A stretch of 62,634 bases of DNA, counting the filler, from Vermamoeba vermiformis (lineage: Eukaryota): the NCBI GenBank assembly GCA_045837725.1. It is 5 parts of 5 records of this genome, joined end to end, with 100 filler letters (N's around TTAATTAATTAA, not from the genome) between each part and the next. Parts side by side here need not be neighbours in the genome. Positions count along the whole stretch, not along the records: positions 25,635 to 35,068 come from JBEWZL010000070.1; 4 more parts are not named here. The stretch is one strand, 5' to 3'. Shown piece after piece: positions 5,171-62,634 of the stretch; position 1 is the stretch's first letter, and each line of letters begins with the position of its first letter. The position numbers were made by a program, and so were the translations under genes. Below the pieces are notes generated by a model. That model did no database searches and was not told the DNA's origin. It worked only from the letters and a program-made list of their open reading frames with translations.

Positions 5171-6934
5171 TTAGTCCCGAGCACGTGGGAGCTTTGCAAT
5201 TTCCGGTTCAAATTCGGCATTAAATTTGAACACCAGCTTGAATAACAACTCAAGCATGTCATCGTAGGATTTCTTGGCCTTGGTGATGATCTGGCGGAAT
5301 TGATTCGCGCGTGTAGAGCTGGTCACGAAAGGTTTGTCCAAGATCTCGATGAGCTGTTTGGCCACTTTCGCCAAAGGAACGTTGGTATCGCGCACGGTAG
5401 TGTAGAGTAAGAAGAGACTCTGGAAGTATGGCTCCAAGGCTTCTGGCACGTCAGGTAAATCTTCGTCATCTGGATTGACATTAAATTTTCTAATGTCCGG
5501 CACAGATTTTGCGGGCGAAGCAGCCAAAAATTCAGGAAAATTACTGTCTTCAATAGTCAAGGAGGGGTTCGTTAACCCAGCGCCAATGCGATCAGATTTC
5601 GATTTTTCTGAATCCAAATCGGACTCAACGAACTCATCATGAGCATCAGCGTCAGGTATACATACCATATCTTCCTCCCCTTCTTTAGACGCAAGAATAA
5701 TCCCGAAATCTTTGTAAGTACCGACGATCCGATCCTTGATTTGATTGAAGTCTTTTGATCTGTCTACCAAATATGCAGGCTTGATGCGTTCAATGTTGGC
5801 ATTAAAAACTGGCCCTCCATAGATGCTGCGTATGCCATAGACGTTGGGATTGAAGACTTCCACAATCTCGTACGGTCCGATCCAAGGGAATGTCAACTTC
5901 TTAGTCAGCCCTTGGGTGCGTTGAGGAAAGAAGTACCACACGACCAGGCCTTCGGGTAAGCAGAGTTCCTTACGATCAGTGTTGTTATTACGAGCCTGAC
6001 GTTCTCTTGCTTCAGCGTTATATTTCGCGACGAGCTCAAAACACGCTTGCAATCGTTTATGCAGCTGATTGACCCAAGCTTCGTCATCAATATGCTCTTC
6101 TTCGTTGGACGATGGGAAGATGCGATGTAGTGGCAAAAACATGTCGCGGCCGTGCATCATGTAGAACGGCGAGAACTTGCTTGACGCGTGGCGCGAAGTG
6201 CGATAGGCAAGCAACACGTAGGGCAGATACTGGTCCCAGTCACGCTGATTGGCATCCACGTATGCGGTAAGCATCTGAGCAAGTGTTTTGTTGAAGCGTT
6301 CCACTAACCCGTCTGTTTGCGGTCTGTAGGGTGTCGTGAAGACCTTTTTGATTGCCATGTAGTCATAGATGGCGTCAGCGAGCGTAGACATAAACTGTGT
6401 TCCGCGATCGCTAAGCAACTTCAGAGGGGCTCCATGTCGAGCTACAACTTCGTCGACGAACACTTTGGCGATGCTTTCAGTTGTAGCGTCGTTCAAGGCA
6501 AAGGCCTCGACCCATTTGGTCAAGTAGTCAGCAAACACAACGATGTAGCGTTTGCGAGTAGAAGTGATCAGCAGAGGACCCATAATGTCCACACCAACCA
6601 TCTCCCAAGGTGCGTTGGCAACGATGTGCATGAGGAGACCAGGTTTTGCTCGAGTAGGTGCTTTACGGCGCTGGCAAACATCGCAAGTTGTCACGTAAGT
6701 CTTGACATCTCGCCACATAGATGGCCAGTAGAACTGTTCTCTGATCTTGGCATAGGTCTTGTCCAATCCCAAGTGAGCGTTCTCGATTCCGCAGTGCATA
6801 CGATGCAGTACGTAGTTCTGCAAGAGCTCCGGCACGCACAGGGCATACGTCACTTCACCAGGGCAATAGGCATGTGTGAGGACGCGGTATACCACACCAT
6901 CCTTGACAGCGTAGTTGCATTCTTCTTTGTGCAC
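5171..6934 (-). CDS. Gypsy-type integrase (HHCC zinc finger, DDE core, GPY/F motif, long C-terminal extension); 5'-truncated pol
   Basis: H..AHLG...CDVC; VDIMGP; LLSDRGTQF; QTDGLVERFNKTL; WIGPYEI. Reading frame uninterrupted for 587 aa. Confidence 0.95.
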   Translation of the reverse strand: MHKEECNYAVKDGVVYRVLTHAYCPGEVTYALCVPELLQNYVLHRMHCGIENAHLGLDKTYAKIREQFYWPSMWRDVKTYVTTCDVCQRRKAPTRAKPGLLMHIVANAPWEMVGVDIMGPLLITSTRKRYIVVFADYLTKWVEAFALNDATTESIAKVFVDEVVARHGAPLKLLSDRGTQFMSTLADAIYDYMAIKKVFTTPYRPQTDGLVERFNKTLAQMLTAYVDANQRDWDQYLPYVLLAYRTSRHASSKFSPFYMMHGRDMFLPLHRIFPSSNEEEHIDDEAWVNQLHKRLQACFELVAKYNAEARERQARNNNTDRKELCLPEGLVVWYFFPQRTQGLTKKLTFPWIGPYEIVEVFNPNVYGIRSIYGGPVFNANIERIKPAYLVDRSKDFNQIKDRIVGTYKDFGIILASKEGEEDMVCIPDADAHDEFVESDLDSEKSKSDRIGAGLTNPSLTIEDSNFPEFLAASPAKSVPDIRKFNVNPDDEDLPDVPEALEPYFQSLFLLYTTVRDTNVPLAKVAKQLIEILDKPFVTSSTRANQFRQIITKAKKSYDDMLELLFKLVFKFNAEFEPEIAKLPRARD

Positions 6935-7775
6935 TCGAGCACTATATATACTCTAGGGCTAAAATTTTTGCTAGGGTTTCTTGTGTATTGATTTTTTCAA
7001 ATAAAAAACAAAAATTTCAAAACACTATATACCCTATAGGGGTAGGGGTGGGTAGGTGGGGGGTTGCGTATTCTATTTTCATTCACATCAGCATCAAACA
7101 GGATGCACGATTAAATATGATATTAGCGGTGTTAGCCCCCGCATAGAAAGGAGAATGAAAGTGAAGTTTATTGATTAAAGTGATGTTTGTTGTTGAGTGA
7201 GATTTCATTGTTAATTCTCATGAAGAATGATGATTGAGGTGCATAGAATAGAGTGATAGTGATTCAATTAGAGGGTGCATAGATAGATGATTTGATGTTA
7301 AGTATTGATTCAATCTGATTTGATCCCCGTATACATAGATGTTGAATGTGTTGATCATTATTATTAGCACCCATTAGAGGTGCATGAATGATCTAATTGA
7401 ATGCATCTGAATGAGGGGGTGTATACAAATAGAATGAAGATGATGATTGTAATAATGAAGTTGAATCCAAATAGAGGGCGTATACATAGGGTTAGGGGCA
7501 GATTCCTGAGTAAGTGAAGTTTGCCATGGGGGGTTTAGGGGGGCTTGCCCCCCTAATAATGATAATAATCACCATATTATATTGATGTACATGCATGTTA
7601 ATGTGAAATAAAGCTGTATAATACCAAAAAATGCCTGCTGATTCCCACTTTTTATCAGAATTTTGGTGAAGTTGCAGGCTGATCTACTTTTATGATAGAA
7701 ATCAGTAGGAGATATAATAAACTTTTATATACAGGGATATTGACACTTAAATATGAATGTTCGGATTGCAAACAT

Positions 7776-7821
7776 GGTCGGCAAAGTCGCAAACTGGTCG
7801 GCAAAGTCGCAACTTGGTCGA
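7776..7821 (+). repeat. 20-bp tandem repeat (GGTCGGCAAAGTCGCAA core) x2 plus a partial copy
   Basis: ggtcggcaaagtcgcaaact ggtcggcaaagtcgcaactt ggtcga. Confidence 0.85.
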
Positions 7822-25534: not shown

Positions 25535-25634
25535 NNNNNNNNNNNNNNNNNNNNNNNNNNNNNNNNNNNNNNNNNNNNTTAATTAATTAANNNNNNNNNN
25601 NNNNNNNNNNNNNNNNNNNNNNNNNNNNNNNNNN
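25535..25634. other. Artificial contig linker
   Basis: N44-TTAATTAATTAA-N44. Confidence 0.98.
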
Positions 25635-25687
25635 AAGTATTGTAAAAACGCATTTGAGTAAATTTCGCACTTTTATAAGACAACTGG

Positions 25688-28600
25688 TTATTTTTTCCTT
25701 CTTTTCTGTTCATACTCTGCCCATTCCTGGTTTTTGCTTTGGTCAGCATCAATGAAGCAATTTCGTGGTTCCCACGATTGCTCTCCATTTTCCCACAGAA
25801 CCAACCATTCTAATCTGTTTCCATTCTTCCTATGGTCAACTACTCTTTTGACAATCCATTCCTCTTGGTCTTGAAAAGAATTAGTATTGGTTCAAATAGT
25901 TGCCAACAGCATACCCTGAGTGAAATCTCGTTTGCGCTTTTTGGTTAACACTTCTACCTCTGGTTTTGAGCTAGTACTAATTATTGGGGCAGGCACTTCT
26001 GGTTTCACTTGCCCAATGGAGAACATTGCTTCAGAACTTTGAATCGGTTTGTATTGTGCCAGAGCTTCGAAATATTCAATTGCCTAAACTAGCCTTAAGA
26101 AACGGTTTCAAAGTTGAAAGCTTACTTGTTTTGACAAGAATTTCTGAGCCTTGCTAACAATAGTTTGAATCAAATCGGCAGAAGGGCAAGTGGGTTGTAT
26201 CACAGAAGGCTGACCAGATGGAGCTGCGCTGAAAAGTTCATCTTTAACTTCCGTCCATTCATTATCCAGTGACTGTTTCTTATACAAAAGAGAAGGAGTG
26301 TTGTCAAGTCCAGGTTTGATCCAAAATGCATACTTGTCCTTATGTCCACTTATTGACTGTGAAAAGCCAAGAAACCATTTCTTCCATGAATATACTGGCC
26401 ATTGTAATTCACGAATGAGAATGTCTTTTGGATAGATGGCTCTGGCAAATTCCACTGCTTGGTCCATAGTTTCTATAACTTTCCATCGAAAGTAAGTGTG
26501 GAATAACTGAAACAATCTATCAATGTCTTCATGGGTATGTCCAGGTTGAAGGTAGTGAATGAATATTTCATCGAACCAGTTATGGTGCACTAAAGCTGCT
26601 GCAAACTGTAGCAGATACTGGTTCTTTCCTTCTGCGGCACTGTTATCTACTTGCAAGTAAAGAGTTCTTGGTCTCTTGCCTGGGTCTAGAGTGAGAAGTG
26701 ACTCTTTTAGGTGATGGAAAAGCAGTGAGATGTAAAAGTCTGAATCTGCTACATAATCTGTTTCCTTGAAAAACACCAATTCTCTCTTGTTCAGACCATG
26801 GTTGATGAAGCCAACAAAACTGACAGGTAGGAAAGTTACATTTGTCCATTCTTTTGGCATTGGATGAAAATGAGGCAACCAAAATGAGCCACTTTTGTCC
26901 GTAATGACACTCATCTTGAGGTGAGGTTGCTTGATAGCAATATCTGTTCGAACTCGATAACCTTGTCTATCTCTGGTAATATAGGCTATATGATCTTGCA
27001 TTTGTTGCTTAAGAGCTGAAAGAGTTTTTTCACACAGACCAGATTGAAGTCGCTTCTGTTTAATTAATAGGCATGTTGAGCACTTTCCCAGTCTGGTTTC
27101 TTTCGGTCTTTTAACATTCTAAATTGATAATTAGTATTAATAGGATTCAAGTTAATGTACCTTAAATTGCTTGTGCCTCACTTGCTTGAATGTCTCAAAA
27201 CTGGGAATATCTTCAGTTGGCCGTTGCAGTTTGCACTCTTCTGCAAAAAGTTTGTACCACTCTTTGTTTCTGAAGCTAGTAATTACAACCATATTCTATT
27301 TTATATACAAACTTACGTTAAATGAGATGGTAAGTGAATTTCATCCTTTGTAGGAACATAGTCTCCATAGGTTTCACAATAAGCTGAAATCCATGCTGCA
27401 ACAGAGTCTCTCTTTGGAGTATCATATACTCGAAAGTAATTACCATGTAGAGTTGCAGTACTGCCATTAAGGTGCATTTGCTTGCAGTGAATCACTTTCT
27501 GAACGGCTACACCATAGATCCGACAGAAAGCCAACTGACAAACTGACATTCCATTGATCAAAAACACAACTGAAGGATCTGATATATTCATGTTGGTTCC
27601 CATAAATTTCAATAGCCAAGTTGTTTTTTCACTTTCATTCATGTCAGCTACCATTTTGCGACATTTGAGAATCTGTTGATACGTAAACAATGAAGTGCAC
27701 CTTGCATTACAACAGCTATCTTGTTGAACTGGTGTAAACAAGTTAGAGGTGTTTTTTTAGAAGCGAAAACATACCCTTTGTTATTGACTGTTCACTCACT
27801 AGTTTGTCTTTCTTTGCATGTTGGGCTTTCTGAGAGGGAACTTTCACGGCTGTGAGCTCTCTGAAAAATGAGCGAGAGATGAGTGGCTCCTCTTCAGCTT
27901 TTGATATAATGGATTGAAACAATGCAATTCCATTAACTTCTTTCTTAGTTGCCAGGTCCTATTTAGATTGTCAATACTGGAATACAGACAAATGTCAACA
28001 GACCTGCTGCTTAATGTACACCAAATGATCAATGTATTGTTTGTTTTTGCTAACATTGATATCTTCATTCACTCGATAGGCTATACCATTGTTTTGCATC
28101 CCATCATAAAAGTATGTGGCGTTGTTGTTAAGAAAGTAACACGTGGTGTGCACCCCATCACACATCAAAGCACTTAGTAGACTATATGTGCTATCTCCAA
28201 AGTGGAGAGTTGGTTCAATTTGTAAATTAATATTGGTGAACTGTCTCTTATATCTGCCCAACTCCACTGTGAGAACGGTTGGAAGGTGCATTGTTCCTAA
28301 CACATTTGTAAGAATATATCTTTGACATCACTGGAGTTTCTTACGATGTTCCACTGCAAATTCTCCACAAAATTCACACGGCATAGGCATTTTTTGGCAA
28401 TAGTCTATCAAATGGTGAATTGAAGCCTGAACGGAGAGCGTACTGTCAGAAAGTTTCTCAGCAACATAAACAGTTGGGTTGTTGAATTGTTTGATAGTTA
28501 AGGGGCAGCGGCAATTTGATCTGTGCTCTTCAGAAGTGCAAAAAAGGGTTGCTTCAGCTGTGGGCAAGGTTTTGATAGCAGCAGACAGTATTGCTCCAAT

Positions 28601-28898
28601 AGAAACGTATGATTGGCACGGAGTCCATCCAGCTACTGGTCCAAGAGCTTCAATTAAATCAACTTTCAATTGATGTAATGCTGAGCTTGATAATGGTGCA
28701 AATTGAATCCAGGTTGCAAGCAAGCGAAAGAAATTACTAGTCAGCTGCAAATCAGGAATACACTGCAGTGTTAGGCGAAGCACCAGGGCAACAGTTTCAA
28801 TAGTGCACAGATCTTTCATTCCTAGTTTCTAGGTTAGTACTACTAATGAGAAAGCTCACCAAGTCCTACCAGCTGAGCCCCACAGGAATCCTTGAAAT
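25688..28898 (-). CDS. Spliced transposase: USP-like cysteine-protease domain + Cys-rich region + Sola-like/DUF7869 DDE core + C-terminal chromodomain; first exon not found
   Basis: ORFs 28328-28819, 27995-28303, 27313-27741 and 26108-27001 join through short GT-AG introns. Motifs: LVGLGMKDLCTIE (Cys box-like), CEFC, YSLLSALMCDGVHTTCYF...YFYDGM (His/Asp box-like), CCNARC, VCQLAFCRIYGV, LGKCSTC, LQVDNSAAEGKN, GHTHEDIDRLF. Last exon 25869-25688 reads EEWIVKRVVDHRKNGNRLEWLVLWENGEQSWEP. Confidence 0.82.
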
Positions 28899-29007
28899 CT
28901 AAAAAAGACAAGTCAGTCACTAACTTGAGCAGTGATTTTTCAACGAGCCAACAATATAATATATAAACTATAAATGATTAACAATATTCAATTATCAATG
29001 AAATAGT

Positions 29008-29459
29008 GTTCGGCAAAGTCGTAGACCAGAGGTGCAAAAGTTGGTGCAAAGTTTGTTTCGACATCATCGCTGAGTCATTTTTCAGACAGTCGAATATCAT
29101 TGAATTAGGCATAATGTGGTGTATTAAGTGCATATATTAAGTTAGTTTTGTTCGGCAAACAGTTGCGCAATGGGAGGACTCAACAACCGAACTGTAACTA
29201 CCAGTCAAGATTTTTCATTTGATAAGTAATTGCACGTTTATATTATGCACAATTAATACTTCATATAATTACTCTTTAGGAAGTTCGGCAAAGTAGTGTT
29301 GGAAAGTGGTTAAAGTTGGATCTGACTGCCGGCAGAACTTGAGAAGCCATACAAAGGCTACAAATGTCAAATAGGACAATATATTCATTTATCTATCTTT
29401 TCTGAGTTATCTGAATGCTGTATATGGAGTTACAAGTGCATTTAACTTGGTTGCCGAAC
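29008..29459. repeat. Four exact copies of GTTCGGCAA (three forward, one inverted)
   Basis: 29008-29016, 29150-29158, 29283-29291 (+); TTGCCGAAC at 29451-29459 (-). Confidence 0.9.
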
Positions 29460-29726
29460 ATTTTACTGAGGGCACGGGGTAGTTGGCATTAAAGATAAGC
29501 TATAAACAAAGCATAAACAAAACAAAGCCCATAAGTGCATTATATACTATATTAATATCATCATATAATATTAACAGCACTGAATAATTATTAGAAATGA
29601 CTTGCGAGGCAGATATGAAATTGTGCCGATCACTTTTTTCATTAAATTGTCAATTCCTTCATTAGGATATTATTAGAGCTGTACTTTAAAGCCCTTTTAA
29701 TTATTAATAACTCAAAAGAATAATTT

Positions 29727-30101
29727 CTAATGACTTCCGAAGAGGGAGGAAAATCAAATCTGACCCGGCTTACCTTGAATTAATCTCCATAGTGTTTTGA
29801 ATAAAATGACCAATGATATTGATGTTATTATTAATAGTAGCTGTAGTAGTTGTGGGTTATCTTGTTGATAGTAATAAGAAAATGGCTTGGTAAATTGGCT
29901 CGTGCCCAAAGCCCTGGTAACTTCCTTTTTTGGGAGAACAAAATCAGAAGTTGCTCGGAAGTCATTAGATAACCACAACAATGGCTAATAACCCAGAAAA
30001 CTCTATTATTGAAGTACCAACAACCCCCGAAGATGCAAGCCCTCCCGAGCAAAAGACTGAAACTGATTCCTCAGATCTGAATCCATCTCGGAAGTCATTA
30101 G
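29727..30101. repeat. Three exact copies of TCGGAAGTCATTAG (one inverted)
   Basis: CTAATGACTTCCGA at 29727-29740; TCGGAAGTCATTAG at 29955-29968 and 30088-30101; degenerate AATGACTTGCGA near 29596. Confidence 0.9.
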
Positions 30102-31436
30102 GTATGAGATATTACCTTTAATAATTAGGATATAATAGTAAAATAATATACATTAGCTTAATGTAAGCTTAATTTCATTTTTCAATAGCTGACAATTCTG
30201 CCGATGATTCAAATCTAGCTCGATCCAAAGAAAAAAGCTCAGATCAACTCCTCAATACTATAGGTAATAAATAATTACACTACTATCTAAAATATAATAT
30301 TATAATGCATTATTATAGAAGATAAAGCCATTAGCTTGGACGGCCAAGAAAAGCCTGTCGCCGATCCAGTTTCATCCGAACAAGACAAGAGTAAGTCCTA
30401 CTGTTTGTACACTTCTACAATAGTTAACTCTCACTGCAGAGGACATCACTGAGTACTTCATTTACTTTGGAGAGCCTTGGGAAAAGAAGTGTTATTACAA
30501 AGTGACTCGAAGAGTGGACAACTTCTGCATCGAGGCAGGAGACTTGGTTGCCTTGAAATCAAATGCTGGGCTCCACACTGTCCTTCTCATTAAGAGAAAC
30601 AAACAATACAACAAAGTCCTTCTTGCCGACCCAACTCTAGCAAAGGTCATCGAGGTCAAGTTCAGCGAGGTCCTGACAATCCACGGCAAAACAAGCTCTG
30701 GGCAACAGCCCCAACTGGACATATTATTCAAGGAGTACATCAGTGCAAAGGTAACCTAGCTATCTATCAAGATAAAAGCTTATTCACCTTTGTAGAAAAA
30801 AAAGTTATCTCCGGCAAAGTCCAAATTAAAGCCCAAAGAAATGCATCCAAAGAGTGCAACTCGTACCCAACCACCTCGTTCTTCTCGTTCTCCTCCTGTG
30901 AAGAGTGTGCCAGTAATCAAAAAAGGTATAATCAAAAACATCAGTAGTATCATCTAATAACCTTGAACTTAGAGCTAAAGCAAGCAATCCCTCAGGCACT
31001 GCGTCGAAGAAAGGAGCGCAAGCCAGCTCCAAAGATATTACCTGACTCCTCATCCTCTGACTCGGAGAGCTCTGTTAGTGTCAAGCCAAAGCCAAAGCAA
31101 CAAAAGAAAGTGATGGAGGCTCCAAAGCTCAAGCCAGAGACGCTGCTCAAACCAACCCAACCATTGAGTGATAGTGCTCTTCAAAATGCACCGTCTCTTT
31201 CTAATCAAGATTGTTCTCCAAATCCGATTGCTTTGGAACCTGCCACGCACAATGTCACTCCACTGTTCAACGTACCATTCCAGCTTCAAAAACTGCTAGA
31301 GCTTCAACAAGTGCACCATCGGCATGCAATGGCACAACAACAGGCTAATTTCATGTTGTTGTTACAACAGCAACAGCAAGCTGAGTCTCAAGAGGCATTC
31401 AGTGCAGTAGTGCAAACCTTCTCGAAATTCAAATAA
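29981..31436 (+). CDS. Uncharacterised multi-exon protein: acidic N-terminus, small beta-rich domain (possibly BAH/Tudor-like), K/P/S-rich linker, Q-rich tail
   Basis: ATG at 29981 (MANNPENSIIEVP); GT-AG introns near 30102, 30263, 30391 and 30751; domain KSYYKVTRRVDNFCIEAGDLVALKSNAG. The domain identity is a guess. Confidence 0.65.
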
Positions 31437-31552
31437 TTAGTTCCTGACGTTCTGCGAAATTCTTGCTAGTTAAATAAAATGAGAAACTTCTAGAAGTAAT
31501 AGATTTCGTTGATTTTTCGTCAAAATTTCGCTGACTTTCTAAAATAGTAGGG

Positions 31553-31560
31553 TATAAAAG
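31553..31560 (+). promoter_or_regulatory. TATA box of the NEIL1-like gene
   Basis: GTATAAAA about 60 bp upstream of the ATG at 31615. Confidence 0.6.
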
Positions 31561-31614
31561 GAGAATTCTTAGCAAACTGTCATTTTTAAATTGATTCTAA
31601 AGACAACACAACAA

Positions 31615-32658
31615 ATGCCAGAATACCTTGAAAACAAGCTAGATGCAAGTGCCATCAATGCCAAAGCAAAGGGCCACAAGTTCAACTCAATATCCACTGG
31701 TCCATACAAAGTACCTACTTCTTCAGAGCCCCTACCTACCATGAATGGACAGTATACTCTCTCTGCCTCTGCCATTGGAAAGTGGCTTATTATCAAGCTG
31801 CGGCAAAAACGTCAACTTAAGCACACTCTCTACATCTCTCTCAGCATGAAAGGACAAGTTGTGTTTCTTACCCCTGAACAGTATGAAGCTGAAAGCAAAT
31901 TTGTGGCTATTGCTTTCCATCGTGCAGATGGCTTGGTCATTGGACTCTTCCACAAGCCCAGCAACCACATTGTTATATATGTGGATTACAAACCTGACAC
32001 TCTTTCACATGACTTCTTCCTTGAACCATCAGCATTCAAAAAGCACCTGCAACAGAAGTTGAAAGCTACCCGCAAGAACCTGGCTACTACTCCTCTCTGT
32101 GTATTGATGCTGGATCAAGACTTCTTTCCTGGAGTTGGAAACTATCTGCGTGCTGAAACTCTCCATAAGGCAAACATTCCACCTTTCACTCCTGCTAGCC
32201 TCCTGAACGAACCTCAGTTTTTGCAAACTCTGTTGGATGCTCTACATGCAATTGTGATGGAATTCATTGCCAAGTTACCAGATCACTACAACATGCAAGA
32301 TGCTCAAATGAAAACTTGGTTTGAGAATGATTTCCTGAAGGTGTATGGCAAACAAGACTCCCAACGTGCCTTTGACTCCAGTGGAAAGAAGATTTGGTGG
32401 AAAGGACCAGGGGGACAGCTTCCCTATGTACCAACAGAAGATGTATCCAAAGAATCTGTTGGTCCTTATAGTGGATGGGCAATGGAGCTGGAACAAACTG
32501 AAATTACTCACCAGGACAAGCAAGCTCTTCACTATGCAGTGCGCAAAGGAAAGCGTGGACGACCTAGAGTGATACGCAACTCTATTGGAAGACCAAGCCT
32601 GGGCCGCCCTCAATACAATAATAGAAGAGCAAAGCAAAAGTTTATGTACCGTAAATAA
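31615..32658 (+). CDS. Fpg/Nei-family DNA glycosylase/AP lyase, NEIL1-like, with C-terminal AT-hook-like GRP motifs
   Basis: True start MPE (catalytic Pro-Glu); SASAIGKWL (cf. NEIL1 SASARGKEL); SMKG; H2TH MLDQDFFPGVGNYLRAETLHKANIPPF; zincless-finger-like LKVYG...DSSGKKIWW; KRGRPR. Confidence 0.92.
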   Translation: MPEYLENKLDASAINAKAKGHKFNSISTGPYKVPTSSEPLPTMNGQYTLSASAIGKWLIIKLRQKRQLKHTLYISLSMKGQVVFLTPEQYEAESKFVAIAFHRADGLVIGLFHKPSNHIVIYVDYKPDTLSHDFFLEPSAFKKHLQQKLKATRKNLATTPLCVLMLDQDFFPGVGNYLRAETLHKANIPPFTPASLLNEPQFLQTLLDALHAIVMEFIAKLPDHYNMQDAQMKTWFENDFLKVYGKQDSQRAFDSSGKKIWWKGPGGQLPYVPTEDVSKESVGPYSGWAMELEQTEITHQDKQALHYAVRKGKRGRPRVIRNSIGRPSLGRPQYNNRRAKQKFMYRK

Positions 32659-32703
32659 ACTAAATGTACCCAAATGCACTTTTACAATACCTTTCGATTC
32701 TAG

Positions 32704-33340
32704 TGAACTTGAATCGTACTTTCATTCATGTCTAGTCTACACACCAAAATACTGCCATTTCTCAAAAATAGACAATTTTAGTGCACTACGAGCAGTTGGA
32801 ACACTAAATTGGAACGCAGCGAAAGATCCAGTGGCCAGAGATGCAGGCCTTGCCGTTTTTGAGCGACAAATTATTAAGAGGCTTGCTCTTGATATATTCA
32901 AAGACCCAATCGATGCAGCAGAGCTCACAGAATTTTCAATGGCAAATATCTACAAGAAGTACTTCATCTTGCAGGAGCGAGAACGACGCGAAGCTGAAAA
33001 GGCAGCCAAAGAGGCCCAAAAAAAGCTTAATCAACAGAAAAAATTGACTAATGCTCCTGCAAATGACACACCGAAGGTTGCAGGCAAGCGAAAGCGAGAA
33101 GACAATAAATCCACAACGGAAAAAAAGCAAGAAAATTCCAAATCGAATCCAAAGCGGCGGCGCACCACTACTAAAGATGAATACAATTTTTTAGTAGCTT
33201 ATTTAGACAAGGATTCACCTTTATCGGACCAAAGTTTCGAAGAAATCCAAAAAAAGCTTGGATCGGAGTGGGATGCAGCAAGGATAAAATCATGGCTGCG
33301 AAATAATAGACAAAGGCAAAGGAAAAGTAAAAATAAATAG
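32704..33340 (+). CDS. Exon encoding a coiled coil, NLS and divergent homeodomain; probably exon 2 of the NEIL1-like gene
   Basis: KRRRTTTKDEYNFLVAYLDKDSPLSDQSFEEIQKKLGSEWDAARIKSWLRNNRQRQRK has homeodomain spacing (W48, N51, R53). No convincing ATG or promoter of its own; TTCTAG acceptor ends at 32703. Confidence 0.7.
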
Positions 33341-33622
33341 TAAGCTCGTGTGGTGTTCCGTTCAATTTTTCCCGTTTGATTGGTCACGTCAACCAGGGCG
33401 CCAGAATGCTCCTTTAATCCTTTGGAAATCTCAGCATAATCTTCGAGTAAGATAATATCTAATTTAAAGGGAAAATCAATTGGGTCGGTAGGGTTAAGGC
33501 TGGCTCATATGGGGTCAATGGTCCTGATACTACGTAGAGTGAAGTACACACGAAATTGTTTTTCGGTTGCAAACTTTATCTGCACTTTCTGACTGCGACC
33601 ACACTATTAAATAACTACAAAT

Positions 33623-33929
33623 ATGGCTCGCCTTCACGACACCCTTGAATTGGTCAGCGTTGAAGACCGCTTCGTCTTGATCGCAAACGACAAGAGTGGA
33701 TTGCAGATTGACCGCAGAAGTGGTGCTATTTCAGGTAAATAACGAATATTAATCTGTCCTTAGTATTATTTAACCATGCCGTGTTGCATTATGGATTTAT
33801 CTTGTGGATTTGACATACTTCATGATCTAACGTCTTTTTCTTGCTTAGTCCTCAGCAATACTGAAGAAATTCAAGGAGCTGCTAAAAAGACTGTTTTTGG
33901 TATTTTGGGCATTGTGACTTTGCTTAGAG
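33623..33929 (+). CDS. SAC1: SAC1-family phosphoinositide phosphatase, first two exons (3' partial)
   Basis: MARLHDTLELVSVEDRFVL...LQIDRRSGAIS|...KTVFGILGIVTLLRG, the characteristic SAC-domain N-terminus. Confidence 0.75.
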
Positions 33930-33992
33930 GTAAGCTTTCAATATTAAGAAATAAATAAATTTCGAAAATTTTCTAACCGGCAATCAAAATCC

Positions 33993-35052
33993 ATTATACT
34001 CACTCGTAATAACGAATAATATAAAACTTTATTACTGGAGTACCTCCTCTATTTTCTACGCTCCGATCTACAAATTAGTCGCGTGATACAAAACCCTGGT
34101 AGATCGCCAGGTTTTTAGCGCGCGTTGGCCTGTCCGACATTTTTTGCCTTTTCTTTTTCTTTCGCTCGACCACGCAAGGCGCCTGCGTTATCACTGGCGC
34201 CTTGTTTCGTCCTTCAGCCCTCCGCGTAACAGGGAGGCCCCACTGGGCGGGCGAATCTATTGTTATTTGTTGTTTATTTGTTTCTTGGGGTTTTTTATTA
34301 TTCCCCACGCCCTCACGATACGCCGTCTGTGGTATTGTCCGTGTGACCTCGAAGCTAGGGGCACACACACTGGAACGCTCTCTCTCATCTGGATTTGGTG
34401 ACGTCACCAAATTTTTCCTGTGCGTTCTGGGGCCGAGCCTTGCTCCTCATGAGTTGCGGCTGCCTGCTAAGCGCGCTCATGAATTTTTGGTAATTTTTGG
34501 AGCTCAACAAGCGATTTTGGAAGAACGGATCGCGAATGCCCTCAGGGGTAGGGCGACGCTAGCCCTCCTTTCCTTGCTCGGCTACGCCCATGGGATGTCT
34601 TGCTGCCCGATATGCTGTTGGTATCGAAGGAGATTGATTGTAGAAGCTGGCGCATCTATCGTGTAAGATTGCAACGAGACTTTGCTGTCACTGCCGTGTT
34701 GTTGGCATCTGTTACTAGTGGCTTATGGTGCATTGTGCATCGCTTTACCAGCACACTCCGTGCTGAAGGGACCCACTCCGGGTCTGGCCATTTGGGATCC
34801 TCATCGGATCAGATGGACTTCGCAATTTCTCCGGGCGTCGACGCCTGCCATCTCTTGCTGTTCTCTAGGATACACGAATTGATGGTGCTTGGTGGACCAT
34901 CTCTCTCATCACTTAGGACTTTCTGTTGGCAGCCGCAACAGTCAAGTGGTTCAAGATCTACGTGGCTGGGAACCACTTGTGGGTAATTTTCTTCATCTAC
35001 ACAGTTCCAGTAATAAAGTTTTATATTATTCGTTATTACGAGTGAGTATAAT
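33993..35052. mobile_element. Non-autonomous TIR DNA element (~1.05 kb) in a SAC1 intron, probable TA target duplication (Tc1/mariner-like)
   Basis: Perfect 47-bp inverted repeats at 33993-34039 and 35006-35052 (ATTATACTCACTCGTAATAACGAATAATATAAAACTTTATTACTGGA). No transposase inside. Confidence 0.85.
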
Positions 35053-35068
35053 AGAAAGAAATACGATT

Positions 35069-60315: not shown

Positions 60316-60627
60316 GGCCTTAATTAATGAACAAAGTTAGCAAAGTAGATTCGGTACAAAAAAATAATAGTGTTCTTATTTGAGCGCTTATTAATATTAA
60401 CATTAACGAAACGAGAAAAATAATACAACGATAGCATACCAACGACTGCTTTTGCTCTGCTTGGAAGTAGAACAAATATTAATAAGCGAATTGCACGGAG
60501 CGAGTTACCTGCGAAAATTCTTGTTAGCCCTGGTTAATTAATTTATCGCTAACTAAACGCGCTTTCATCAGACTAAAATTAAGCTTTATTACGAATCAAA
60601 ACAAACACAATGCATCGCAAATATTTT

Positions 60628-61365
60628 TTAGTTGTGAATGGAGCCTTGAGCAATTACTTCCTCCGCTATTTGTTGTGCATCTGCCCGAGTTGATGCTGGT
60701 GCCGGGGTTGGAGTTTGTCCATCCGAGTTATTATTAGTCCCGAGAATAGAGGTAGCCTGCGGAATAATTGAAGGTACTAATTGGAGCATAGCTAAGGTGG
60801 CCACTTCTAAAAGACGGTTTGCTTTCGCCATGTGCTTCTCGCAGTTTTCAACTACATGCAGTGCCTTCGTCACCGTCTCCAGTTCAACATTGGCCATTTC
60901 TTCAACTTTTTGTTTCTTTTTTTGTTGTTCTTGCTGTCTTTCTTCCTCAGCTGCATCAATGAGGTTGTTCATCTCCGATGCAGTTCGCTTTGATCCTGAT
61001 TTTGCCAATATTTCTCGCTGCTCCATTTTTATTATGGCAGTAACAATTTCACCATGCTTATTTTTATGGTCTTCTTGTTCGCGTTCATGTTCTGCTTTTC
61101 GAACAAGATAGATGTCCTCAGGCTCATCTCGATGCTTCGCTTGAAACTCTTCCACTTGGTATTCGTTTTGCCAGTACTCATCATTCTTCATGTTATTATA
61201 TTTTGTCTTGATTTCTTTCGCGGTACGGTTACACTTATGTAGATCTTGATGCGTGGCTGCAACTTTGTCCCAATTTTTACCACTCTCATATAATAATTTA
61301 ATCATGCTATATGTCTCCGCAAAACTCCAGTTTGCACCACGCTTAATGCGAGAGCCCTTCACCAT
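60628..61365 (-). CDS. Harbinger Myb/SANT (trihelix) DNA-binding protein
   Basis: WSFAETYSMIKL...WDKVA...RTAKEIKTKYNNMK plus a C-terminal coiled coil. Confidence 0.9.
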   Translation of the reverse strand: MVKGSRIKRGANWSFAETYSMIKLLYESGKNWDKVAATHQDLHKCNRTAKEIKTKYNNMKNDEYWQNEYQVEEFQAKHRDEPEDIYLVRKAEHEREQEDHKNKHGEIVTAIIKMEQREILAKSGSKRTASEMNNLIDAAEEERQQEQQKKKQKVEEMANVELETVTKALHVVENCEKHMAKANRLLEVATLAMLQLVPSIIPQATSILGTNNNSDGQTPTPAPASTRADAQQIAEEVIAQGSIHN

Positions 61366-61483
61366 GTTTGCTATCAGTGAAGGAATATTAAATTTTAAAA
61401 ATTTGAGAAACTAAAAAATTGATAATGTCTCCTGGAGTATCGTGACCGAAACTTCGAGAAGCAAATTTATTAATCATTGAAAC

Positions 61484-62500
61484 ATGGATCAACAATTAAT
61501 ATTTAAAAAAAATCCTATCCCTCTTCTAATATTAATAATTGGGCATTGTTTGCAGCAACTGAATAGCCTATCAATTATAGTCGCTGTTTGCAAGCAAATT
61601 GTTAATTTTAGATGGCGCAACGTCCACAAATACCTCCATCTACAACCACGAAAGCGGCCACGAGAGAAAAAGAAGCAAGTTATACAAAAGAAAGCAAAGT
61701 ACACAGATACATTAACAACAGCGGAATTATATGATATTCAAAAGCACACAGGATTGACCCGAAAGCAATTTAATGACCTATTTAATCTGATCAAGAACGA
61801 TCTGGAAAAACCAAAGAAAGGAACAAAGAGAAATGCTACCATATTATCGCCTCCACAGCGACTATTAATGGTGCTGCATTGGCTCCGAAAATATTTAGAT
61901 TACCACACACTAAGCATAATCTATCACGTTTCTGAAAGTACCATCTCTCGAGAGATTCGCTATTTACTGCCAATCATGTTCGAGCGATTCAGATTTATGA
62001 CACCATTAAATACAAACGGACCAAAAATTATGGGGTGCATTGGTGTAATAGACTGCACTCCCCACCAGCGTGATCGAGTTCATCCGCGATCAGGAGATTA
62101 TTACAGAGGCGACAAAAAATATTTTTTCTTGACAGCCCAAATTATTACACACCTCAATGGAACACCGGCAGAAGTTGTTGTTGCTCTTGGCCACAATAAT
62201 GACCAAGCACTGTTCAAGCTGTCAGGGGCGAAAGATTTTGTCGAACTGAATCAAGTCCATCTCCTCGCGGATCGTGGCTATTCTCATCACAGATTGATCA
62301 ATTCCTACTCGAAATATTGGACTAGTGATTGTTCAGCTACTAGGATTGTTGTCGAGAATTGCATCTCTGTTGCGAAGCAATTTAAAGCCCTACGAGCCAG
62401 ATTTACACAAGGACCGGAACTACAAGCCTGTGCAATTATTATTGGCTTTGAATTGGCCGCCTACACATTAAAATTTGCTCCGTTGCGTTATTCACCGTAA
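61484..62500 (+). CDS. Harbinger/IS5-like DDE transposase (HTH_Tnp_4 + DDE_Tnp_4)
   Basis: LSPPQRLLMVLHWLR...VSESTISR; GVIDCT; GHNND; LLADRGY; RIVVENCI. Confidence 0.93.
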   Translation: MDQQLIFKKNPIPLLILIIGHCLQQLNSLSIIVAVCKQIVNFRWRNVHKYLHLQPRKRPREKKKQVIQKKAKYTDTLTTAELYDIQKHTGLTRKQFNDLFNLIKNDLEKPKKGTKRNATILSPPQRLLMVLHWLRKYLDYHTLSIIYHVSESTISREIRYLLPIMFERFRFMTPLNTNGPKIMGCIGVIDCTPHQRDRVHPRSGDYYRGDKKYFFLTAQIITHLNGTPAEVVVALGHNNDQALFKLSGAKDFVELNQVHLLADRGYSHHRLINSYSKYWTSDCSATRIVVENCISVAKQFKALRARFTQGPELQACAIIIGFELAAYTLKFAPLRYSP

Positions 62501-62634
62501 ATAAAGCTTAATTTTAGTCTGATGAAAGCGTGTTGAGTTAGCGATAAATTAATTAACCAGGGCTGCGTCGAAAATCCAACGGAAATTTCTACGCTAACAA
62601 GATTTTAATCTGTTGAAGTTCGCTTAATATATTG

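Follow-up and report, generated by a model that had tools for sequence, protein, structure and literature searches.

Related systems and the element in outline

Sola elements carry a DDD transposase and terminal inverted repeats (TIRs), measure 2–9 kb and have 4-bp target-site duplications (TSDs) (PMC10741241), with AWWT given as the target of Sola1 (PMC3845634). Accessory cargo has been described in the group, including Fanzor in an amoebozoan Sola2 (PMC3627910) and a ParB-methyltransferase in Ectocarpus Sola1 (PMC12477816). Here we describe a candidate Sola-like element of Vermamoeba vermiformis (assembly GCA_045837725.1), found in a 62,634-nt stretch of DNA made of five N-joined parts (the window); the element lies in the part at positions 25635–35068 (JBEWZL010000070.1). 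We consider it fairly probable, taken jointly with the module roles set out below, that this is a cut-and-paste TIR DNA transposon, ∼7.07 kb long and by its design autonomous, in which two transcription units diverge and three genes are carried: a spliced transposase with a USP-like peptidase domain and a chromodomain, a second open reading frame (ORF2), and a NEIL1-like DNA glycosylase (ORF3).

In the literature searched, each of these ingredients has a precedent in some class of transposon except the Nei glycosylase. The VTDs of Helitrons and Helentrons are active deubiquitinases (DUBs) that cleave K48 and K63 chains and have been proposed to shield transposition proteins from the proteasome (PMC9741609), and PMC5751038 counts OTU and C48 proteases among the accessory domains of DNA transposons. 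The V. vermiformis element shares with Helitron VTD and OTU proteins a putative papain-fold DUB within the main ORF of the transposon; the Helitrons differ in being rolling-circle elements with other classes of DUB, whereas the window has a putative USP-like domain on a DDD transposase. C-terminal fusions to chromodomains are found in Gypsy integrases, both in chromoviruses and in independent algal lineages (PMC12477816). Here, too, a chromodomain is fused to the C-terminal side of an RNase H-fold enzyme, but Gypsy elements are long terminal repeat retrotransposons, whereas this element has TIRs and its chromodomain cage lacks the third aromatic residue. Fungal TIR elements carry TET/JBP dioxygenases, proposed to undo silencing (PMC12730594); they and the element in the window both encode an enzyme acting on DNA bases, in the latter case a glycosylase/lyase rather than an oxygenase.

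We call the element Sola-like on the strength of its triad, in which the third acidic residue is Asp, its TIRs, its size and its likeness to one Sola2 sequence. By eye, CxxC, D, D and H-x-x-x-D-x-D follow one another at similar spacing in the core and in Sola2 sequences from the supplement of PMC3627910; the Sola2 sequence compared reads HGKSDVD where this core reads HTHEDID, and on that comparison the core lacks the HGK-type motif. None of the Sola descriptions read mentions a USP domain, a chromodomain or Nei cargo. For Dada elements, chromodomain or protease cargo found no support in PMC3706591. In the open-access literature we found neither a description of DUF7869 nor a TIR transposon with a Nei-family glycosylase (Repbase and subscription journals were outside the search), and the combination of modules has no earlier description in the literature searched.

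The transposase gene

Nine minus-strand exons and eight GT-AG introns (48, 48, 45, 46, 41, 42, 42 and 45 nt, 5′ to 3′) form a single 950-codon frame with its sole stop at 25690–25688. Along this frame lie, in order, a USP-like papain domain, a linker, a DUF7869 (GHTHEDID) transposase and a chromodomain. An earlier reading of the window from sequence alone (the sequence-only reading) had placed the same three domains in one spliced frame, and the intron comparison given below upholds it. Exons 1–3 (28898–28870, 28821–28345 and 28296–28004) encode the USP-like domain and exon 4 (27958–27775) the linker between it and the transposase. Exons 5 and 6 (27728–27317 and 27275–27161) encode the N-terminal region of the transposase, which contains cysteines, is helical, is matched by many family members and is probably DNA-binding. 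The catalytic core occupies exon 7 (27118–26126), followed by a linker exon (26083–25915) and the chromodomain exon (25869–25688).

A metagenome scan with a 20-sequence alignment retained at least 79 loci from at least 446 confirmed relatives. Two of the 79 loci listed, L001 and L002, match the USP, linker and chromodomain exons; their cores are 72% and 71% identical to that of the window, respectively. Although synonymous positions are saturated or nearly so (pS 0.74–0.98), identity remains 53–59% in the USP exons and 71% in both core and chromodomain. Exons 5 and 6 are 62% and 56% identical to L002. The two linker exons are less similar to L002, at 28% for exon 4 (tblastn E 4.7e-6 to L001 and 0.002 to L002) and 31% for the exon preceding the chromodomain.

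All eight introns occur at homologous places in L002. Five of them differ in length between L002 and the window by non-multiples of three (50/45, 50/46, 46/41, 44/42 and 46/45 nt), whereas exon-length differences are multiples of three save for 2 nt deleted from exon 2 of L002. For the second intron the acceptor was taken from L001, where it is intact, that of L002 being mutated. The intron at the junction of USP-like domain and transposase (27959–28003, 45 nt, phase 0) would, if retained, lead to a stop after two codons; its L002 counterpart, also in phase 0, measures 50 nt, begins with a GTAATA donor and keeps its acceptor intact, and the linker exon that comes next is homologous and likewise open. 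Because L002 keeps all eight introns, the junction included, at different lengths, the fusion of USP-like domain and transposase is probably real. Independently of the window, a further relative, P0034, has core and chromodomain within one reading frame. A search with the core for longer relatives returned two matches, neither with a USP domain or a chromodomain.

The first exon reads FQGFLWGSAG-MKDLC in the frame common to the window and L002, with its donor at 28869; a frame ending in LVGLG was ruled out, L002 keeping the alternative frame. Candidate upstream exons with an ATG were also set aside; they would need introns of 361–568 nt against 41–87 nt elsewhere in the element.

The USP-like peptidase domain

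The three exons between 28004 and 28898 encode putative catalytic residues at 28807 (Cys), 28150 (His) and 28105 (Asp), with four conserved cysteines in between. All of these, with the His and Asp 15 residues apart, are kept in the window, in L002 and in the relative P0160, so that the Cys box and His/Asp box of USPs (peptidase C19) are present in all three; L001 has Asn in place of the Asp. The four cysteines would presumably suit a USP zinc ribbon. P0160, encoded on a 3.7-kb contig, is 52% identical over the USP region and ends two residues beyond the position of the junction. In the ESM Atlas its nearest clusters are named USP or assigned to PF00443 (UCH), at 0.95–0.96 with 179–189 shared features, and all ten of its best family matches agree on USP/UCH. 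A USP-like fold is thus likely from motifs and Atlas matches, and we put the chance that the domain cleaves ubiquitin somewhat above even. The type of peptidase that the sequence-only reading had named from these boxes is supported, although its GLGMKDLC motif came from a wrong donor.

The catalytic core and its relatives

The core exon matches DUF7869 (Pfam PF25273, E 4.7e-39). Its putative triad consists of Asp codons at 26899, 26647 and 26521; these residues (D74, D158 and D200) are retained in at least 90% of 130 aligned rows, and D200, within GHTHEDID, is nearly invariant. Because the third acidic residue is Asp, the presumed catalytic triad is DDD rather than the DDE named by the sequence-only reading. 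A structural model of the core built from 130 sequences (pLDDT 95.4) aligns best with Mos1 and Metnase (Z 10.4, root-mean-square deviation 3.4–3.6, 166–170 residues aligned), with retroviral integrases and IstA within one Z unit of these. The four Foldseek matches at E 0.001 are IstA and a simian T-lymphotropic virus (STLV) integrase. The core combines an RNase H fold with a conserved acidic triad.

Searches for relatives of the core returned 2400 sequences at E up to 0.001, named examples of which come from an amoebozoan, a nemertean and amphioxus; viral contigs searched with the transposase held no relative. These relatives differ from the window in their flanking domains. The chromodomain is matched by one of 151 examined and the USP exons by none, the latter count being weak because database entries are mostly single-exon gene calls that cannot show a fusion. 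Among 65 relatives scanned with Pfam, none has a UCH or Chromo domain at E 0.01 and one carries part of a Ulp1/C48 peptidase ahead of the core. The latter is the amphioxus protein P0121, which suggests that the DUF7869 family has captured ubiquitin-like-protein proteases repeatedly. By a crude pattern, 25 of 72 long DUF7869 transposases (e.g., P0001, P0002, P0008 and P0020) have a terminal domain containing an aromatic FWLAxI-like motif; this domain may be a barrel of SH3/Tudor type that takes the position of the chromodomain.

The chromodomain

As a single sequence, the last exon (25688–25869) falls below the Pfam cut-off for Chromo (E 0.0016). A four-sequence profile matches cpSRP43 (5.6e-8), HP1-alpha (7.3e-7), CDYL (1.5e-6) and also CBX proteins, and on this comparison the chromodomain fold is genuine. 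The first and second cage aromatics are Trp and invariant in all four sequences. The loop after the second Trp is three residues shorter than in HP1-alpha and CDYL, and the third cage aromatic is missing from all four, leaving two of the three aromatics that form the methyl-lysine cage of HP1 and Polycomb readers. Trimethyl-lysine reading is thus doubtful on sequence grounds. To our knowledge, cpSRP43, the best match, is not a histone reader. The fold that the sequence-only reading had claimed for this exon stands, with the correction that the third cage aromatic is lacking.

Extent and termini of the element

The element runs from about 25631 to 32696–32698. At its left end, an imperfect TIR (25635–25665) is cut by the contig end, with about 4–6 terminal bases missing. 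The inverted repeat between 25637–25665 and 32662–32690 has 25 of 29 positions matching, against 22 of 29 for the best among 200 shuffles; TIRs, as expected of a DDD/E cut-and-paste transposon, are thus present. The right TIR and element end (32653–32698, terminus at 32696–32698) align with the L002 terminus at 41 of 46 bases and diverge beyond it. If 32696 is the end, the bases that follow are ATTC in the window and ATAT in L002. Because the terminus adjoining it matches that of L002 in this way, the glycosylase gene lies inside the element. These TIRs, the NEIL1-like gene and ORF2 had been overlooked by the sequence-only reading, which covered the transposase gene.

A contig from sequencing run X1, at least 99% alike to the window elsewhere, has different letters joined straight onto 32699 and is the uninterrupted form of the target frame. 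In the window this interrupted frame continues outside the element at 32699–33340 (plus strand) and is probably the tail of another transposase; its C-terminal region resembles a homeodomain (Pfam Homeodomain E 0.00087, below cut-off). We take its start to resemble the C-terminal motif of Mutator-like transposases, a label given from the motif alone; the pairing of a homeodomain with a Mutator-like transposase, if true, would be another unusual domain combination. An Rfam search of the contig (25635–35068) gave no matches.

Rightward genes and intergenic motifs

ORF3 (31615–32658, plus strand) is an intronless gene for a 347-aa NEIL1-like Fpg/Nei DNA glycosylase/AP lyase (AP, apurinic/apyrimidinic) with a basic, AT-hook-like tail. 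Its Pfam Fapy_DNA_glyco match is above cut-off, H2TH lies just under cut-off, and its best PDB match is human NEIL1 (E 9.5e-11). Pro2, Glu3, Glu6 and Lys56 are invariant in five of five aligned sequences; the catalytic roles of Pro2, Glu3 and the conserved Lys in Fpg/Nei enzymes are well established. The N-terminal Met-Pro-Glu, the conserved Lys, the H2TH region and a zincless-finger-like segment all align with human NEIL1, the features expected of the Fpg/Nei family. ORF3 differs from NEIL1 in a finger Arg replaced by Lys in four of five sequences and in its location inside a transposon. Searched by itself, the N-terminal half matched no solved structure in the PDB that would place the base-flipping and void-filling residues.

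Four glycosylase clusters are 67–70% identical to ORF3, comparable to the distance of the L001 and L002 cores (71–72%). The longest contigs of four of 11 listed glycosylase members measure 7136, 7139, 7167 and 7611 nt; three of the four are near the size of the element, and the 7136- and 7139-nt entries belong to one cluster. In length, these contigs match what a collapsed repeat would be expected to give. Searches of viral contigs and prokaryote genomes with the glycosylase returned no relative.

ORF2 (29981–31436, plus strand) has six exons and five introns and is open over 390 aa, with a terminal stop only. One stretch (30440–30750) is globular and the remainder is of low complexity; no Pfam or NCBIfam family was found, and its Atlas matches are all under 0.9.

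The divergent intergenic region holds three minus-strand copies of the 10-nt motif TTTGCCRAAC (29008–29292) at spacings of 142 and 133 nt, against 0.36 copies expected in the window. L002 likewise has three copies, spaced 142 and 142 nt at similar distances from the first exon, in surrounding DNA that cannot be aligned; these repeats may act as a promoter or as a binding site. Another motif, TCGGAARTCATTAG, lies at 29727–29740, 29954–29968 and 30087–30101, in both orientations, in the central region of the element, and once in L002 (55–68), where its distance to exon 1 corresponds. Outside the element, two 20-nt repeats at 7775–7814 resemble the central 10-nt motif region.

Proposed mechanism and alternatives

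The account we favour, as reasonably likely, is that of a cut-and-paste element in which the transposase is protected by a deubiquitinase of its own and tethered by a chromodomain, while a glycosylase that has been maintained works on element DNA or integration sites. The leftward unit would give one spliced protein comprising the USP-like peptidase, the DNA-binding region, the RNase H-fold core and the chromodomain, and the rightward unit would give ORF2 and the NEIL1-like glycosylase. The core would excise the element and insert it at its TIRs. The likeliest substrates of the peptidase would be the transposase or its partners, which, stripped of ubiquitin, would escape proteasomal clearance as proposed for Helitron DUBs; the chromodomain would tether the transpososome to chromatin or to a basic peptide, probably without a canonical trimethyl-lysine cage. 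The glycosylase may act on element DNA or on intermediates of integration, where it would take out bases that are damaged or modified, or nick abasic sites.

Several observations weigh against this account. For the fusion, the junction donor at 28003 is weak in the window (GTCTGT) and the L001 junction acceptor is altered. L001 and L002 also have a frameshift in common, and thus represent one decayed lineage rather than two tests. No sequencing read crosses any junction (four of the seven listed runs); run X1 yields no contig within the element, and runs X5–X7, from a related organism, give two to three reads per run at listed sites on the chromodomain exon, which is no evidence of expression. 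A search upstream of 28898 gave no start codon in the window copy, which may therefore not be translated in full; an ATG directly before the first conserved motif is present in L002 and absent from the window. For the peptidase, the USP call comes from one tool plus motifs, the domain having no Pfam, NCBIfam or PDB-sequence match, and a single-sequence fold of P0160 is uninformative (pLDDT 39.6, no match at E 0.001). With the left end lost, the TSD of the window copy is not readable. The linkage of glycosylase and transposase is read directly in the window only: neither the glycosylase nor ORF2 occurs in the 79 listed loci, L001 and L002 ending before that part, and the remaining seven of the 11 glycosylase members are on contigs of 1.1–4.8 kb.

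Three other explanations were weighed. The chromodomain might read H3K9me/H3K27me and steer integration into heterochromatin as in chromoviruses, aided by histone deubiquitination, in line with the heterochromatin-guided integration plus deubiquitination proposed by the sequence-only reading. Gypsy integrases offer a precedent (PMC12477816), the chromo fold is clear from the HP1, CDYL and CBX matches with both Trp residues invariant, and the window copy is inserted in what appears to be another transposon. Of that proposal the chromo fold holds, but targeting to heterochromatin is weak because the shorter loop removes the third cage aromatic in all four sequences. The best match is moreover cpSRP43, and only one insertion site is characterised, L002 being flanked by other sequence. 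We regard this explanation as unlikely. It is less likely still that the USP-like domain acts mainly as a free protein, with the junction intron retained, the transcript ending there, or the peptidase cleaving itself from the transposase. Retention would bring a stop two codons past the donor in both the window and L002, P0160 ends likewise, and the weak window donor, the poorly conserved linker and the lack of USP matches among the 151 relatives point the same way. Against this, L002 keeps a phase-0 donor, a branch-like motif, an acceptor and an open homologous linker exon despite a 5-nt change in length, the window linker exon lacks an ATG in frame, and the count of relatives carries little weight for the reason given above.

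The rightward genes, in turn, might be captured host genes carried passively (Pack-type cargo), or mere neighbours, with no role for the element. Giant Sola1, KDZ and EnSpm elements do carry accessory genes of unknown function (PMC12477816), the linkage comes from a single genome, and ORF2 has no relatives in the listed loci. The glycosylase, however, is full-length, with catalytic motifs invariant in five of five sequences at 67–70% identity; it is intronless amid an intron-rich genome and stops at the TIR, and the contigs of three relatives are about the size of the element. We accordingly give a passive origin a low probability. A tentative extension of the favoured account, which we think improbable as it stands, is that the element carries a counter-defence kit: the NEIL1-like enzyme, held by its basic tail or by the motifs spaced at ∼142 nt, might excise host-placed or oxidised base marks from the DNA of the transposon itself, and the USP-like domain might deubiquitinate the transposase or nucleosomes engaged by the chromodomain. 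If true, a TIR transposon would here be turning base-excision repair against silencing, in parallel to the fungal elements with TET/JBP enzymes.

Other features in the window

Several further elements and genes lie in the window. A compact Harbinger-type element at 60526–62564 has 65-nt TIRs (97%) and two genes, both open: a DDE_Tnp_4 transposase (plus strand, 61481–62500) and a divergent Myb/SANT gene (minus strand, 60628–61410). An element of ∼1.07 kb with 50-nt TIRs (98%) occupies 33990–35055, directly behind exon 2 of a host gene whose start is near 33623; most of this element is present at depth 77 in run X1, where the host exon is joined to other letters. A Gypsy-type integrase frame (H2C2, rve and SH3-like) spans 5171–6952, and a TTAGGG array at a contig end (9035–9250) is probably a telomere. 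Such TTAGGG repeats, closely packed genes and short GT-AG introns suggest a protist. Between 35529 and 39955 lie four tandem paralogues at ∼1.3-kb spacing, whose products contain Cys, are rich in Thr and Pro and have hydrophobic tails; these are perhaps surface proteins.

Significance

With this locus DUF7869, a previously uncharacterised family, gains a transposase fold and a complete element. One compact cut-and-paste element unites a chromatin-type reader with two predicted enzymes, a ubiquitin protease and a glycosylase of base-excision repair. These modules are small and assayable, and would allow a direct test of how a DNA transposon evades degradation and silencing and chooses its target.

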